DNA of 64,000 nucleotides from Dehalococcoidia bacterium (GCA_965248455.1 OZ252105.1:200993-264992); one strand, 5' to 3'; positions 14,343-49,785 are shown, numbered from the stretch's first letter. Numbers and translations are program-made. Notes: generated by a model not told the origin, from the letters alone.

Positions 14343-14450
14343 CGCGGCATGGAATGCATCGGGGATATCCACGGCTCGGAGGAGTACACACGAGCATCTG
14401 CACCCGCGTCATCACTCAGTGCGCGTTGGAAGAGGCCTTCCGTGGATTGG
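14343..14450 (+). pseudogene. degenerate fragment of a CoxM-like 3' end
   Basis: Reads [15 protein letters not shown], then a 1-nt indel, versus [29 protein letters not shown] at the real coxM-like end (13790-13880). Aligned by hand at nucleotide level. Confidence 0.5.
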
Positions 14451-14633
14451 GCGCCATTCAGATGCCTGCTCAGGTAACACGGTAGCGATCACAGGTGTTT
14501 CGTGATCCGCAAACTCAACCACGAACGCCTTGCCAGACGCATGAACATGCACGATTGTCCCAACCTCCCCAGCCTGTAAACCGTCCTGTGGAAGGGCAGT
14601 TGTAAGAGTGATGATGTCATGTTCCTTGAGCAT
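14412..14633 (-). CDS. DUF4926 domain protein
   Basis: MLKEHDIITLTTALPQDGLQAGEVGTIVHVHASGKAFVVEF resembles DUF4926. GGGAGG RBS before ATG 14633. Confidence 0.6.
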   Translation of the reverse strand: MLKEHDIITLTTALPQDGLQAGEVGTIVHVHASGKAFVVEFADHETPVIATVLPEQASEWRPIHGRPLPTRTE

Positions 14634-14728
14634 CTCGCCTCCCAAGCGGGTAAGCCGTAATCAGCCGTGGACTAGTGTTCCCTGTGTCTACGACCGGTTA
14701 ACGTGGGCCTGTCTCGCATTCGGAAGCC

Positions 14729-16693: not shown

Positions 16694-16728
16694 AAGGGGG
16701 CTGTCGTTGCGATAGCCCCCTTCTTTTG
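16694..16728 (+). terminator. rho-independent terminator
   Basis: aagggggct (16694-16702) pairs with agccccctt (16714-16722), followed by cttttg. Confidence 0.65.
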
Positions 16729-16750: not shown

Positions 16751-17176
16751 TCACGGCAATTCAAGGGCGACGCGCTCATTGACAGCGTCAAAGGTACACC
16801 GGAATTGGTTAAGGATGTCGCGGCCTAGCAGCGATGGCAGTTGCGCGTCTGTCTTGCCTGCAATGAGATCGATAGCAATCTCGATTTCACGGAAACCGCC
16901 AAGGGCAGCAGTATCGTGAAATCGGAGGATAGCCTCCGTCTTCTTGGACCGTGTCTCACCGCCCACGCCGTTCGCGGTCTGGTAGCGTCCCTTGACTGAT
17001 GACATCTGGATACCCATCCTGCCCACGTCATAGGGTAGTAGCGAAGTACCATCTGCTCCCGTGTCCACGAGGAATTCTATATCTGCGTGAAGTCTTAGAG
17101 CAGGAAGGTAGACCTGAGCTAGGATGTAAGGCGCAGGCGGGGTATCGTCGTGCTGGTAGTACCCGTGTATCGCCAC
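16751..17176 (-). CDS. retropepsin-like (clan AA) aspartic protease, single lobe, copy 1
   Basis: FLVDTGADGTSL catalytic DTGA and LLGRDILNQF. GTG start lies 1 nt after the upstream stop. Confidence 0.75.
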   Translation of the reverse strand: MAIHGYYQHDDTPPAPYILAQVYLPALRLHADIEFLVDTGADGTSLLPYDVGRMGIQMSSVKGRYQTANGVGGETRSKKTEAILRFHDTAALGGFREIEIAIDLIAGKTDAQLPSLLGRDILNQFRCTFDAVNERVALELP

Positions 17177-17177
17177 G

Positions 17178-17435
17178 TTACAGAATCAAGCGCCTCGGTT
17201 TCTTGGACGCGTATCTGAGGACGGCGTGGTTCTTGGGCACTCCCTTGTTATCCATCTCCTTCAAGACGCCTTTCAATGTCTTGTGGGTAGCCACAATCGT
17301 GCCCTTGTAGACTGCCACGTAGCTGTCAGGGTACTTCTTGCGCACCTGTGGCCAGATAGAGCTGAGATAGTCGCCGTCTTCACGGAACTGCGTGTGCGTC
17401 GCCAGATCAAAGCTCGGTATGCTCTCGGTAGTCAT
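17178..17435 (-). CDS. small partner protein (DUF5678-like), copy 1
   Basis: 85 aa. ...KKYPDSYVAVYKGTIVATHKTLKGVLKEM... AGGAG RBS. Homologous by eye to 48206-48502. Confidence 0.55.
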   Translation of the reverse strand: MTTESIPSFDLATHTQFREDGDYLSSIWPQVRKKYPDSYVAVYKGTIVATHKTLKGVLKEMDNKGVPKNHAVLRYASKKPRRLIL

Positions 17436-18374: not shown

Positions 18375-18761
18375 TTATTGTTCGGCTGACTGTTGGTAAC
18401 GAGAGATGATGCTCGTAACGCCGGGGTACACAGAGACTTGTTCTTTGCCGTCCCACCAGATATACGCTTCCAGCTCGCTGCGGTTGAGTTTCACTTTTCC
18501 GCCAGCATGTACTAGCACCACCTTGTGAACGTTGAAACTCTCCTCGCTGTTGTAATCAAAAAGCCGTTCCGCTTTGTATGCCCGCAATCCCAACTCTTCG
18601 CTGAGTTCGCGGCAAGCGGCGGTAAGGGCAGCCTCGCCTCGTTCGATGCCGCCGCCGGGCAATGAGTAATGCTGTCTGCCCTTATCGAGTACCAACAGGT
18701 ACTTACCATCTCTGATTACAAGGGCAGTGGCGCGTTGGCGTTTAGCAACACCTTTACTCAT
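18375..18761 (-). CDS. NUDIX hydrolase (copy 1)
   Basis: Nudix box GGGIERGEAALTAACRELSEELGL. Visibly AT-richer than its surroundings. Confidence 0.85.
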   Translation of the reverse strand: MSKGVAKRQRATALVIRDGKYLLVLDKGRQHYSLPGGGIERGEAALTAACRELSEELGLRAYKAERLFDYNSEESFNVHKVVLVHAGGKVKLNRSELEAYIWWDGKEQVSVYPGVTSIISRYQQSAEQ

Positions 18762-46080: not shown

Positions 46081-46482
46081 TCACTTAATCTCTTTTGTCT
46101 GTGTTCCTTGCTTCGATGCCTTCCACAAACCCAGGGCCTTACTGTCATAACCAAAGGCAAGCTCCCATAGTTCAATATTCCATGGATTCCGCCATCGAGC
46201 ATCCATGCACTCTTTACGCTGAAAATGCAGGTTGCCCCCCGTGGGACGACCAGTGAATACCGTAATAGGATGTTTGTTTCCAGTGAACAATATGCCGGTT
46301 ATTTCTACGATAATGCCGGTTTCTTCCTTGGTTTCACGATAGGCAGCATGGCGACTTCTTTCATGGTGGTCAACATGACCGCCTGGCAACGCCCACTTCC
46401 CCTTCCGTGACCCATATGCCCGCTGCACAAATAGAGTTTCCCCATGGTCGTTTCCGACCAAACAAGCCGCCACCCTCGTCAT
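46081..46482 (-). CDS. NUDIX hydrolase (copy 2, divergent from copy 1)
   Basis: Nudix box GGHVDHHERSRHAAYRETKEETGI. AAGGAG RBS before ATG 46482. Visibly AT-richer than its surroundings. Confidence 0.75.
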   Translation of the reverse strand: MTRVAACLVGNDHGETLFVQRAYGSRKGKWALPGGHVDHHERSRHAAYRETKEETGIIVEITGILFTGNKHPITVFTGRPTGGNLHFQRKECMDARWRNPWNIELWELAFGYDSKALGLWKASKQGTQTKEIK

Positions 46483-46635
46483 GGTATTATCTCCTTCTGC
46501 ACCTGCGCCCGTGCCGAACAATTTATCTTCATCGCCTAACCTCAAAGCCTCGCTCGATATCGAAGATGTCATAGAAGTCTTCCGCCAAGCGCTCTCTGTA
46601 GGCTTCCTCGGGGCGGGGAGCCGCCGCCTGCGCGC

Positions 46636-47745
46636 CTAGTCGCGTATGTCCTGGAGGAACCACTCGGTGGGGAGCTCGTGGCCGAGGCCCTGAGCCTTCG
46701 CCAGCTCGTAGGCGCGGCCTGCCACGGCGAAGAACTGCGCGCCCTGGATGTTCCCGCGCTCCGAGTAGGTTACCGCGCTGTTGCTCGGCCTGCCTTCCGC
46801 GCCCTCGATCATCTCTTGCAGGAAGACGACGCGGCCCTCCGCGACGATACCGTGGGCGCGGCTGACGCGCGACCGCGATTGGTTGCTGGACGCCGGGCGT
46901 CCGCCGGGCGCGTTGGCCTCGTAGGCGATGAACTCGTCGTGCAGCGCCATCTCCGGTATGCCGACAGGGGCGGGCGCGGAGCCGAGGCGCAACGAGCGGT
47001 CTATGCGCTCCATGGCCTCTCCATCTATGCGCCCGCCGACGCAGGTGATGTGCGCGCCGTCCTCGATGTCCTTGCCGAAGATGACCGGCTCCACGGAGTC
47101 GGTGCAGCCTGCGACGATGTGCGCTCCCTTGCACGCTTCGGCGGCGCTCGTGACAGGGATGACCTCGATGCCCAGCTTCTCCTGAATCTCAGCGGCGTAC
47201 GCTTCCCGGTTGGCCTTAGTGGGGCTGAACACCTGGATGCGCTTGATGTCGCGGACGGCGGCGAACGATTCGGCGTGCGAGCGCGCCATACCGCCTGAGC
47301 CGATCATCGCGACGACCGAGGCATCCTCGCGCGCCATGTACCCCGCGCCGATGCCGGAGTCCGCGCCGACGCGCATGTGCTGCAGAAAGCCGTCGTTCAT
47401 GATCGCCAGAGGTTCGCCGTTCTCGGTGCTCATCAGGAAGATGAGGCCGCAGAAGAGGCCGGGCTGCACGCAGTACTTCTCCTCCGTGCGTACGCCCTCG
47501 TACTCCTGTTCGTACACCACGTCGGACTTCATGCGAATGGCGAAGTAGCCGGATGCGGAGCCTCCCTCCATCGTGCCCCACTGGTACATCTTGTTCGGGT
47601 CGGACGTGGGGATGCGCAGATCGATGCGCGGCCTGCAGACCGCCTCAGTGCGCGCGAGCTCCTCATAGGCGCGCTTCAGCGAGTCGATGGTGTCCTGCAT
47701 CGTGAGGACGGCTGCGACGTTGTCGTTGTTCAGGATGAGCGTCAT
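46636..47745 (-). CDS. ornithine cyclodeaminase / mu-crystallin family protein
   Basis: MTLILNNDNVAAVLTMQDTIDSLKRAYEELA N-terminus and MIGSGGMARSH Rossmann motif. ATG 47745 overlaps the protease stop (ATGA). Confidence 0.8.
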   Translation of the reverse strand: MTLILNNDNVAAVLTMQDTIDSLKRAYEELARTEAVCRPRIDLRIPTSDPNKMYQWGTMEGGSASGYFAIRMKSDVVYEQEYEGVRTEEKYCVQPGLFCGLIFLMSTENGEPLAIMNDGFLQHMRVGADSGIGAGYMAREDASVVAMIGSGGMARSHAESFAAVRDIKRIQVFSPTKANREAYAAEIQEKLGIEVIPVTSAAEACKGAHIVAGCTDSVEPVIFGKDIEDGAHITCVGGRIDGEAMERIDRSLRLGSAPAPVGIPEMALHDEFIAYEANAPGGRPASSNQSRSRVSRAHGIVAEGRVVFLQEMIEGAEGRPSNSAVTYSERGNIQGAQFFAVAGRAYELAKAQGLGHELPTEWFLQDIRD

Positions 47746-48206
47746 GGGGTAGGCTCCTGTCGTGGGTAGGACTCGAAAGTAACGCGGCCGGTAACGCCGT
47801 TGTAAGTCATGGTGAAGCGCCGGAGAATGTCCCTGCCAATGATGGCATAGTAGGGCAGGCCCCCACTTGTCAGATGAACGCCTGCGAATTGGCCGTTGAT
47901 CGTGAAGTCGAAATGGGGGATATGAACCTGCGCTAGGTGCATGTTCATCGCGGCTGGGCCATGAATCCCAGTTATGACCTGGTGATCCACTACGGGAAGG
48001 CGCAGGTTGTCGGCAAGGCTTGTGTCGATGCAACTTTCTGAGGCGCCCGTATCGATGAGAGCGGGGAACTGGTCAGACCCAAGGTTAGGCTGGTTGCCGC
48101 TGTCAGGGTCGTAAGAAGTGTCAAGGCCAATTCGGACAGCCAGTGTTGGCCCTATGCTCACCAGCATGTCCGGCTGCCCGTCGAATCCGCAGTCGGCAAC
48201 TGGCAT
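47742..48206 (-). CDS. retropepsin-like aspartic protease, copy 2
   Basis: ALIDTGASESCI (DTGA) and IIGRDILRRF. The ATG overlaps the upstream stop by 1 nt. Confidence 0.7.
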   Translation of the reverse strand: MPVADCGFDGQPDMLVSIGPTLAVRIGLDTSYDPDSGNQPNLGSDQFPALIDTGASESCIDTSLADNLRLPVVDHQVITGIHGPAAMNMHLAQVHIPHFDFTINGQFAGVHLTSGGLPYYAIIGRDILRRFTMTYNGVTGRVTFESYPRQEPTP

Positions 48207-48502
48207 CAGTGAATCCCGAAAACGAGGGACGGAGGCAACTGCAACGGCCCTTTCCCTACTTTGCGAATGAGGTACGGCCCGCGACCGAAGCGGCGCATCG
48301 CCACCCGGGCCGCATCCTCAAATGCCGGATAGGTTCCGATGAGTTCCCCGTCACGCACGATGACCCACTCGCCGAAGTGGTCGGTTTCCAGCAAGTCCTG
48401 CATCCGCTCGTAGGCGGCAATCTCTTCACTCAACTTGGCCATGGCGTCCCCCGCCGGTTGTTCGCCAACCTCATGGGTAGATTGCTGCCTATTAGCGCGC
48501 AT
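48206..48502 (-). CDS. small partner protein (DUF5678-like), copy 2
   Basis: …DHFGEWVIVRDGELIGTYPAFEDAARVAMRRF… aligns with copy 1. Start is either 48502 (overlapping the Rieske stop) or ATG 48442. Confidence 0.5.
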   Translation of the reverse strand: MRANRQQSTHEVGEQPAGDAMAKLSEEIAAYERMQDLLETDHFGEWVIVRDGELIGTYPAFEDAARVAMRRFGRGPYLIRKVGKGPLQLPPSLVFGIH

Positions 48503-49785
48503 CAGCCTTTTGCTGCTGCAGCCTCGCGTCTGTCCAGGATGGGGCTGTACATCGTGGCGGCACCCTGGCGAGAGGACGTGTCCACGTAGTTGTGCTGCTC
48601 CGTCATGAACGGGATGTAGGCGTTCTGCTCAGCGTCTCGGTAGACCTCCATGGGGTCTCCGCCGTCCTCGACGATGCGGATGTTGTCCTCCAGCATCTGC
48701 CGGAACATGATGATGCCCTTGTCGGAGCGTCCCAGATGCTCGCCGGTGCGGTCCGCGATATCGCCCTGCGTGATCCACGCAGCGGGGTCTTGCGAGGAAT
48801 TGCTGCGCAATTCCGGGTAGACCGGCTGACCATTCACGTCCAGCATGGGAACGGGCGGGCGGTAGAAGGGAATCTCCTCCGCTGTCTGTTCCTCGTCGCC
48901 TGCGACCATCGGGTAGCACGCCACCCACCAGTGGCCGGTCGTGTAGTCGTCGATGGGGGTGCGAATCTGGAACGCGGGGCCCATCGAGAAGCTGCCCCGG
49001 TACGTGCCGTCGGTGATGTTGAAGCCGTCGCCGCCCTGGCGCAGGTAGTTCGGGAAGATGATGGGGTGCCCATCCTTCCATTCGGTGTCTTCCTCGGAGC
49101 CGCCTTCCCAGATACGGCGCTTGATGATGCCGTGCTCGAACGCGTCGAAGTGGATGACCTTGTGAGGGCGGCGCGTACGCCGATCCTCATCGCCGTTCAT
49201 CTCTCGGATGAAGTTTGCCCACGCGACGTGCAGCCATTCGAGGTGTACGGGGTCGAGCGAGTTCTCCTGGCACTGCAGCCAGTTGCACGACAGTTCAGCG
49301 TAGCCGATGTCGCGCAGGACGCCGGTTGCGGAGAAGACATCGTAGTTGGGGATGAGCGGCACGGGCGTGGGGCCCATGTAGGCGAACACCAACCCAGCCT
49401 TCACCTCCACCGGGTACGCCTTCATCTTGATCTTGTCCTTGAACCGCGCCTCCGGGTCCTCCGTCTCCTCGTACGGCTGCTCGATGCACTGCCCCGTCTC
49501 GTCGTACAGCCATCCGTGATACGGACAGCGCAGACCATGCTCCTCCGGTATGCCGTAGATCACGTTCATGCGCCGGTGAGCGCAGTGCGGCTCCATGAGG
49601 CCGAATGTGCCGGAGCGATCCTTGTACAGGATGAGATCCTCGCCCAGGAGGCGCACCTTCATCGTCCACTTGTCGTTCATCTGCGAAACGGCGGCGATGG
49701 GGTGCCAGTAGCGGCGCATCAGCTCGCCCATCGGCGTGCCGGGGCCGACTCGGGTATAGCGGTCGTTAGCTTCCTGTGTCAGCAT
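48502..49785 (-). CDS. Rieske oxygenase alpha subunit, paralog 4 (intermediate subfamily)
   Basis: CAHRR...CPYHGW and NSLDPVHLEWLH. AAGGAGAG RBS. Confidence 0.9.
   Translation of the reverse strand: MLTQEANDRYTRVGPGTPMGELMRRYWHPIAAVSQMNDKWTMKVRLLGEDLILYKDRSGTFGLMEPHCAHRRMNVIYGIPEEHGLRCPYHGWLYDETGQCIEQPYEETEDPEARFKDKIKMKAYPVEVKAGLVFAYMGPTPVPLIPNYDVFSATGVLRDIGYAELSCNWLQCQENSLDPVHLEWLHVAWANFIREMNGDEDRRTRRPHKVIHFDAFEHGIIKRRIWEGGSEEDTEWKDGHPIIFPNYLRQGGDGFNITDGTYRGSFSMGPAFQIRTPIDDYTTGHWWVACYPMVAGDEEQTAEEIPFYRPPVPMLDVNGQPVYPELRSNSSQDPAAWITQGDIADRTGEHLGRSDKGIIMFRQMLEDNIRIVEDGGDPMEVYRDAEQNAYIPFMTEQHNYVDTSSRQGAATMYSPILDRREAAAAKG

Follow-up and report, generated by a model that had tools for sequence, protein, structure and literature searches.

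A pair of adjacent genes, encoding a small protein of the DUF5678 family and a single-lobe retropepsin-like aspartic protease, was analysed in a 64,000-nucleotide (nt) stretch of DNA from a Dehalococcoidia bacterium (GCA_965248455.1 OZ252105.1:200993-264992), referred to here as the window. Comparison across genomes shows that, as judged from sequence, the two genes form a conserved, translationally coupled and sometimes fused module, of which the window holds two remote paralogous copies (copy 1 and copy 2, Table 1). To our knowledge, hardly any soluble prokaryotic retropepsin-like proteases have been characterised, and no function has been assigned to the large DUF5678 family. The pair is tentatively read as an autonomous toxin-antitoxin-like or defence-like cassette, in which the DUF5678 protein would restrain a homodimeric aspartic protease.

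The two genes were associated far more often than expected by chance, along four independent lines and in dozens of unrelated genomes. The original prediction, made from the window sequence, had proposed co-occurrence in other genomes as a check, and this was found from both sides. A protease-seeded scan of one genome per GTDB species gave 57 loci, of which 33 proteases passed a subfamily hidden Markov model (HMM) cutoff of E<1e-15. A small-protein HMM match lay directly upstream and on the same strand in 32 of these 33 loci, and the intergenic gaps were mostly -4 to +11 nt (36 pairs). Distant proteobacterial matches (L036-L060) were without a small partner gene; their lengths of 160-365 amino acids (aa) are those of the longest open reading frame (ORF) from the first possible start and may be overestimates. 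For the small-protein-seeded scan, metagenome contigs were searched with a degenerate DNA pattern for YPDQWVA, and the count was based on the 24 loci with a solid small-protein match and either a protease match or downstream room for one. A retropepsin-like ORF followed directly downstream in 19 of the 24, a variant with the motif DPGS in one, and none in four. The 19 positive loci include a second, divergent protease subfamily (IDTG[SN]xVS...GFEDIL), which was missed by the first protease HMM and in which DTG is kept.

The two domains were also found in one polypeptide. P0268 (L198:139-1269) is a natural single ORF of 376 aa with two DUF5678 domains, a Pro/Ala/Gln-rich low-complexity linker and an Asp_protease_2 domain, and its C-terminus carries a hydrophobic segment resembling a transmembrane helix. 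Proteins with two to three tandem DUF5678 repeats (P0154, P0155) were likewise followed by a retropepsin-like ORF. A programmed frameshift joining the two ORFs, as in Gag-Pro, was considered, but a protease frame open upstream was seen in a few high-GC loci only. An RNase_T-like gene and then a run of small ORFs are located 3' of P0268. P0173, a protein of 1147 aa with 11 apparent matches, was rejected as a false positive, being an unrelated repeat protein.

In public gene calls the protease is often not recognisable. It is called as an 88-aa protein from an internal Met, without DTG, in L001 (6001-6267), is uncalled in L061-L065 (4230-4712), and appears as a 59-aa fragment in L069-L072 (5149-5670). 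The full protease ORFs at these miscalled loci were open and matched the protease HMM. Such truncated or missed calls probably hide the DUF5678-protease association in databases.

For copy 1, the ORF listing and the DNA confirmed the predicted pair of an 85-aa and a 141-aa ORF, the 1-nt gap between them, and the DTGA and LLGRDIL motifs of the larger protein. The junction reads ...CTG TAA c GTG GCG..., that is, the stop codon of the small gene, 1 nt and the GTG start of the protease, and an AGGAG ribosome-binding site is located 5' of the small-gene ATG. The protease sequence includes IEFLVDTGADGTSLLPYD and PSLLGRDILNQF; the catalytic segment is IEFLVDTGADGTSL, and SLLGRDIL is also present. The GC content of the pair is about 54%, compared with about 64% in the flanks. 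The window was about 99% identical to two contigs (loci L001 and L002) of the European Nucleotide Archive metagenome assembly ERZ28763718. At the same locus in L002 the small gene is identical, and the protease gene has a 1-nt deletion at codon 4 (L002:5842-5960), which points either to decay of a toxin-like gene or to an error in long-read assembly.

The family assignments that had been suggested for copy 1, retropepsin-like/gag-asp and DUF5678, were supported by Pfam HMM scores above the cutoff, and the proteases of both copies matched Pfam aspartyl-protease families. When tested against the clan AA retropepsin-like families PF13975, PF13650 and PF00077, the copy 1 protease scored 29.8 for gag-asp_proteas (gathering cutoff 28.2) and 27.6 for Asp_protease_2 (cutoff 24.3), while the copy 2 protease scored 28.5 for Asp_protease_2 (same cutoff) and 27.9 for RVP (cutoff 20.7). 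The copy 1 protease scored 24.6 bits for the NCBIfam family TIGR03698 and 24.1 bits for TIGR02281, and the copy 2 protease 23.4 and 13.3 bits, so that both missed the cutoffs of 57.35 and 57.95 bits. On these scores the downstream proteins of both copies are clearly predicted to be clan AA retropepsin-like proteases outside the curated NCBIfam subfamilies.

The motifs of the copy 1 protease are the catalytic D38-T-G-A, the flap G70-x-G72-G73 and G118-R-D120. When 24 relatives with identities as low as 22% were aligned, D38, T39, G40, G70, G118, R119 and D120 were invariant, and the copy 2 protease also aligned with this family. Conservation of DTG in homologues, the second check proposed beforehand, was found in all of these sequences. 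A41, G72 and G73 were at least 90% conserved among the same sequences, and homologues retained both length and motifs down to 30% identity. Because the catalytic and flap residues are so conserved, an active retropepsin would be expected. In one relative (L125:160-915, minus-strand coordinates), an N-terminally extended DUF5678 protein precedes a retropepsin-like ORF of 135 aa with DPGS in place of DTG, and this protease may be inactive.

The protease was also compared with known structures. A profile search of the PDB gave the proteases of equine infectious anaemia virus (EIAV) and feline immunodeficiency virus (FIV) (E ~1e-7), those of Rous sarcoma virus (RSV) and human immunodeficiency virus (HIV), Ddi1 and ApRick, and the catalytic loop, flap tip and GRD/N motif aligned to the same motifs of the EIAV and FIV proteases. 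The AlphaFold2 (AF2) model of the copy 1 protease (predicted local distance difference test, pLDDT, 92.1) has a single-lobe retropepsin fold with an extra N-terminal β-hairpin of about 30 residues. In a Foldseek search with this model ApRick (5c9f) was the first match (TM-score 0.65-0.69, E 2e-6, probability 1.00), followed by the FIV, EIAV, HIV, human T-cell leukaemia virus (HTLV) and RSV proteases (probability 1.00) and Ddi1. The copy 1 protease sequence showed no signal peptide and no transmembrane segment, and the enzyme is predicted to be cytoplasmic, soluble and single-lobed. The single-lobe proteases of family A2, Ddi1 and ApRick work as homodimers that join two catalytic Asp residues, and by analogy we infer that the copy 1 protease also acts as a homodimer.

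The copy 1 small protein scored 27.3 bits against Pfam DUF5678 (PF18929; cutoff 23.2) and has 13 close homologues of equal length. DUF5678 was matched by 20 of 29 diverse partner proteins at E<=0.01 (best 3e-10). The family is represented by 4893 cluster representatives (50% identity) at E<=1e-3 among 1.84 billion clusters. The AF2 model (pLDDT 85) has the predicted order α1-α2-β1-β2-α3-β3 followed by a C-terminal tail, which in copy 1 is the basic and hydrophobic, flexible segment SKKPRRLIL, modelled with low confidence. Most members have P-x-x-hydrophobic-I/L-L at the very C-terminus, after strand β3, and hydrophobic segments equivalent to the tail are present in other small-protein subfamilies. 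A PDB sequence search with the small-protein profile gave nothing credible (best E 0.16), and Foldseek found no fold match of the model in the PDB (best E 0.3). As both searches were empty, the small protein cannot be assigned to a known antitoxin or DNA-binding fold. The model did match BFVD models of pandoravirus DUF5678 proteins (E 1.6e-4, TM-score 0.65, root mean square deviation 1.9 Å), a comparison of prediction with prediction. These matches included A0A2U7UD66, S4VV29 and A0A2U7UG46, and the DUF5678 fold is predicted in pandoravirus and a few tailed-phage proteins. One relative, P0221, has a sub-threshold Phd/YefM-like N-terminus (24.2 vs 29.8 bits) and no protease downstream.

A homologous second pair had been predicted at 47742-48502. 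The pair is present, but the small-gene start at 48502 was not upheld and is probably at 48442. The open frame of the small gene reaches 48502 (98 aa); the product is probably 78 aa rather than 98 aa because its homologues (P0106, P0118 and others) begin at MAKL and the ATG at 48442 has a GGGGGA site in front of it. The protease start overlaps the small-gene stop by 1 nt (TGATG). No similarity between the small proteins of the two copies was detected by BLASTP, and the copy 2 protein alone scored 12.5 bits (E 0.13) against Pfam DUF5678, under the cutoff. Profile-profile comparison of the two subfamilies with hhalign gave a probability of 86% (E 4.9e-6, 60 columns), which points to the copy 2 small protein as a remote DUF5678 member. 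The sequence pattern said to be common to both small proteins is real and reads YVAVYKGTIVAT in copy 1 and WVIVRDGELIGT in copy 2; within the copy 2 subfamily the motif FGRGPYLIR is invariant. The BLASTP alignment of the two proteases was limited to the C-terminal GRDIL region (E 8e-6). Copy 2 lies inside a same-strand gene string that runs from a Rieske oxygenase gene (48502-49785) through the small gene and the protease to an ornithine-cyclodeaminase-like gene. The stop codon of the protease and the ATG of this last gene overlap (ATGA; 47742-47745), and the cassette may be co-transcribed with the metabolic genes.

The number of pairs varied between genomes. Locus L066 (4001-7654) contains three DUF5678-protease pairs in tandem, followed by Uma2, DUF433 and DUF5615, while the sister strains L067 and L068 have two pairs each, also beside Uma2 and DUF433/DUF5615. 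This region is a variable island of small two-gene modules. Two pairs were also present in L004, and frameshifted or truncated proteases beside intact small genes were found in L002, L037 and L108. A neighbour census (Pfam, 111 ORFs flanking 28 loci) showed no conserved third gene; Uma2 was the most frequent neighbour (5), and McrBC, nSTAND3, a Type ISP enzyme, IstB and scattered housekeeping genes also recurred. This evidence for autonomy and variable copy number was obtained from a small sample of loci. The cassette was found mainly in Dehalococcoidia and further Chloroflexota, and also in some Alphaproteobacteria, Binatia and one Bathyarchaeota. The pair at L003:4359-6410 has a 79-aa ApbA fragment on one side and a full-length ApbA gene on the other, which looks like insertion of the cassette into, or next to, the duplicated end of a gene.

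In the toxin-antitoxin-like or defence-like reading, which is the best supported one, the upstream DUF5678 protein would be made in stoichiometric coupling with the protease and would bind it. Binding would probably occur via the conserved, floppy C-terminal tail, which would enter the substrate cleft as a pseudo-substrate; alternatively, the tail could act as a strand that joins the terminal-strand sheet and blocks the retropepsin dimer interface. Upon loss or displacement of DUF5678 the protease would dimerise and cleave cellular or invader proteins. Of this mechanism we infer the contact between the two proteins, the inhibition, the toxicity and the trigger, and the tail is the conserved feature most likely to mediate control. 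The original prediction had offered a toxin-antitoxin or a protease-substrate/inhibitor system as a resemblance, and this reading is strengthened by the autonomy of the cassette, its tandem arrays, strain-variable and decayed copies, the fusion, and a weak link to the PADLOC database. For neutralisation of a toxic protease by direct binding, the P0268 fusion and the strict co-occurrence of the two genes would be indirect support.

This link is to PDC-M08, a two-gene candidate with an A profile of 86 positions and B profiles of 93-128 positions, so that its component sizes mirror those of the 85-aa and 141-aa genes. PDC-M08B is retropepsin-like, and its profiles, which come without cutoffs, gave a weak near-full-length match to the copy 1 protease (E 2.6e-5, 22 bits) and to its relatives (to 2.7e-6). 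PDC systems are unvalidated guilt-by-embedding candidates (PMC12988326). As a weak relative of this candidate, the cassette can already be seen in a database. A search for papers that mention PDC-M08 gave none. The full-text literature likewise yielded no description of the DUF5678/retropepsin pair, toxin-antitoxin and Pfam-accession queries included; coverage was incomplete, and the result is absence of evidence only.

Several results weigh against the toxin-antitoxin-like or defence-like reading. The PDC-M08A profile matched the copy 1 small protein only at E 0.04 and over 16 residues, and only one of 29 small-protein relatives at E<0.01 (E 0.008). The small protein has no recognisable DNA-binding domain or fold (Pfam, PDB profile and Foldseek searches), and a search for operator-like palindromes upstream of both small genes gave chance-level short repeats only. 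As the small protein has neither a DNA-binding domain nor a fold match in the PDB, classic type II autoregulation is unsupported. DUF5678 genes without a protease were found at L073-75, L120, L145, L159 and L173 and for P0221. Most neighbours at other loci are housekeeping genes, copy 2 itself sits in an apparently metabolic gene string with overlapping stop and start codons, and the apparent decay of protease genes could be due to assembly errors. All four window proteins were without a match in PHROGs, and tblastn of the protease against 72,556 plasmids gave none. As both searches were empty, a phage or plasmid origin is unsupported, and patchiness is the sole argument for mobility.

The conserved tail could also be explained in another way. 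The DUF5678 protein would then be a dedicated substrate of the protease, a precursor cut at its tail or at inter-repeat linkers in the manner of a miniature Gag-Pro system, with release of a mature domain or a C-terminal peptide. This appears unlikely. In the proteins with two to three DUF5678 repeats, which precede a protease, the linkers retain the hydrophobic tail motif, the long Pro/Ala/Gln linker of fusion P0268 resembles a cleavable polyprotein, and the low AF2 confidence of the tail suggests that it is probably extended. However, most single-domain chains stop right after the hydrophobic triplet (…RRLIL-COOH), so that no more than three residues remain on the prime side and no product is obvious. 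There is also no hint of a function for a processed DUF5678, and multicopy, strain-variable arrays would be unusual in a maturation pathway.

The genomic context bears on a further explanation, a housekeeping or regulatory protease with DUF5678 as its adaptor, which would recruit substrates or activate the enzyme, for instance by promoting dimerisation, in stress-related proteolysis and with no toxin-antitoxin or defence role. Many loci do lie among ordinary metabolic genes, and copy 2 is translationally linked to the Rieske oxygenase and ornithine-cyclodeaminase-like string. In the available parts of the reports, the roles of Rickettsia APRc (PMC4140852) and of the secreted Pseudomonas retropepsin-like enzymes (PMC11957051) are physiological and not those of toxins. 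Although these points favour an adaptor, no neighbour or pathway is conserved across loci, several divergent paralogous pairs occur per genome, and the tandem arrays differ between sister strains. Together with the atypical GC content, the pseudogenised copies and the patchy taxonomic spread, this makes the adaptor improbable. It is very improbable that the protease is catalytically dead or monomeric and that the pair acts by binding only, with the retropepsin fold as a scaffold (sensor or decoy): DPGS stands in place of DTG in one relative (L125), but the 24 diverse relatives conserve DTG, the flap GxGG and GRD, and the second subfamily retains DTG.

With the module, a specific hypothesis on function that can be tested is available for both uncharacterised families. 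Aspartic proteases would join the effectors of toxin-antitoxin and abortive-infection systems if the protease is a toxin or defence effector checked by DUF5678. In that case DUF5678 would represent a naturally occurring protein that inhibits or regulates a retropepsin, and the finding would also be relevant to the descent of retroviral proteases from prokaryotic genes, cellular or mobile. The more far-reaching proposal, that the pair founds a toxin-antitoxin or abortive-infection family whose aspartic-protease effector is controlled by a small protein at dimerisation or by active-site plugging, is possible but rather doubtful. If true, it would provide a prokaryotic counterpart of retroviral protease control, and thousands of DUF5678 genes, including those of phages and pandoraviruses, would be cognate inhibitors or anti-defence decoys.

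Table 1. Positions in the window of the two gene pairs and of a hairpin next to copy 1
Feature	Position	Strand	Basis
Copy 1 small gene, DUF5678 family, 85 aa	17178..17435	-	ORF listing; Pfam; AF2
Copy 1 retropepsin-like protease gene, 141 aa, GTG start	16751..17176	-	ORF listing; DNA; Pfam; AF2
GC-rich hairpin GGGGGCT-11 nt loop-AGCCCCC, between protease stop and convergent Rieske gene	16696..16720	.	read from DNA
Copy 2 small gene, probably 78 aa, start MAKLSEEIAAY; distinct DUF5678-like subfamily	48206..48442	-	ORF; homologue starts; hhalign
Copy 2 retropepsin-like protease gene, 154 aa, ALIDTGASES ... IIGRDIL	47742..48206	-	ORF; DNA; Pfam

The hairpin downstream of the copy 1 protease has a T-run on the + strand side and is likely to be a terminator bounding the cassette. 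It was not reported by a terminator scan because its loop is longer than 8 nt. Compared with the window, L001 and L002 carry four differences in this region, which lie in the loop and at the inner end of each arm and may include compensatory stem changes.

According to the annotation of the 99%-identical L001, the neighbours of copy 1 are a Phd/YefM-type antitoxin with a PIN toxin, a NUDIX gene and Rieske oxygenases. A vapBC pair had been predicted at this place; the toxin and antitoxin are there, but the vapB-like gene encodes an antitoxin of the Phd/YefM family. The low-GC NUDIX neighbour was seen as predicted, in the window and in L001. Two such genes occur in the window, at 18375-18761 and 46081-46572 (50-56% GC vs ~64%), each within about 1.2 kb of one pair, and a third NUDIX gene is located at the array end in L068. 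The two window NUDIX proteins showed no detectable mutual similarity (BLASTP E 0.54), and their proximity to the pairs may be due to chance or to accessory genes being loosely associated. A small ORF at 14412-14645 (-), 77 aa as listed, encodes a further small protein near the Phd/YefM-PIN and DUF5678 cassettes; the syntenic gene is annotated as DUF4926 in L001 and L002. A specific link to Rieske oxygenases was rejected, as no Rieske family was among the 25 most recurrent families of the 111 neighbours and the window holds several Rieske paralogues.

Among curated prokaryotic families, TIGR03698 (clan_AA_DTGF) and TIGR02281 (clan_AA_DTGA) are nearest to the protease (E ~3e-5), with alignments over nearly the whole model. 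As its 24-25 bits are far under the cutoffs of about 57 bits, the protease represents a separate subfamily.

The pair resembles type II toxin-antitoxin systems in its compact bicistronic operon with the small gene first and with a gap of 1 nt in copy 1 and an overlap of 1 nt in copy 2. It is further like them in being multicopy, patchy and strain-variable with decayed copies, and copy 1 adjoins a Phd/YefM-PIN pair. An aspartic protease is not known to us as the toxin of any characterised toxin-antitoxin system. In 2009 Makarova et al. reportedly predicted that protease-containing COG2856(ImmA/IrrE)-Xre pairs are toxin-antitoxin systems. In contrast to type II systems, no known antitoxin or DNA-binding fold was recognised in the small protein.

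Among characterised bacterial enzymes, APRc (ApRick) of Rickettsia conorii and the Pseudomonas retropepsin-like enzymes are nearest to the protease. APRc is membrane-anchored through its N-terminal domain and acts on surface autotransporters, whereas the protease described here is short and soluble, without a transmembrane segment or signal peptide. As a bacterial single-lobe clan AA protease (PDB 5c9b, 5c9d, 5c9f; PMC4140852), APRc was the best structural match to the copy 1 model, at a sequence identity of about 20%. The Pseudomonas enzymes are secreted, according to the available part of the report (PMC11957051). No DUF5678 partner is described for either in the accessible portions of these two sources.

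The retroviral family A2 proteases (EIAV, FIV, RSV, HIV-1) and the RVP domain of Ddi1 have the same DTGA loop, GxGG flap tip and GRD/N motif as the protease of the cassette. As in the retroviral enzymes, homodimerisation is presumably obligatory. Unlike them, the protease does not belong to a polyprotein or retroelement; it has a gene of its own, which follows a small partner gene, and it carries the extra N-terminal β-hairpin.

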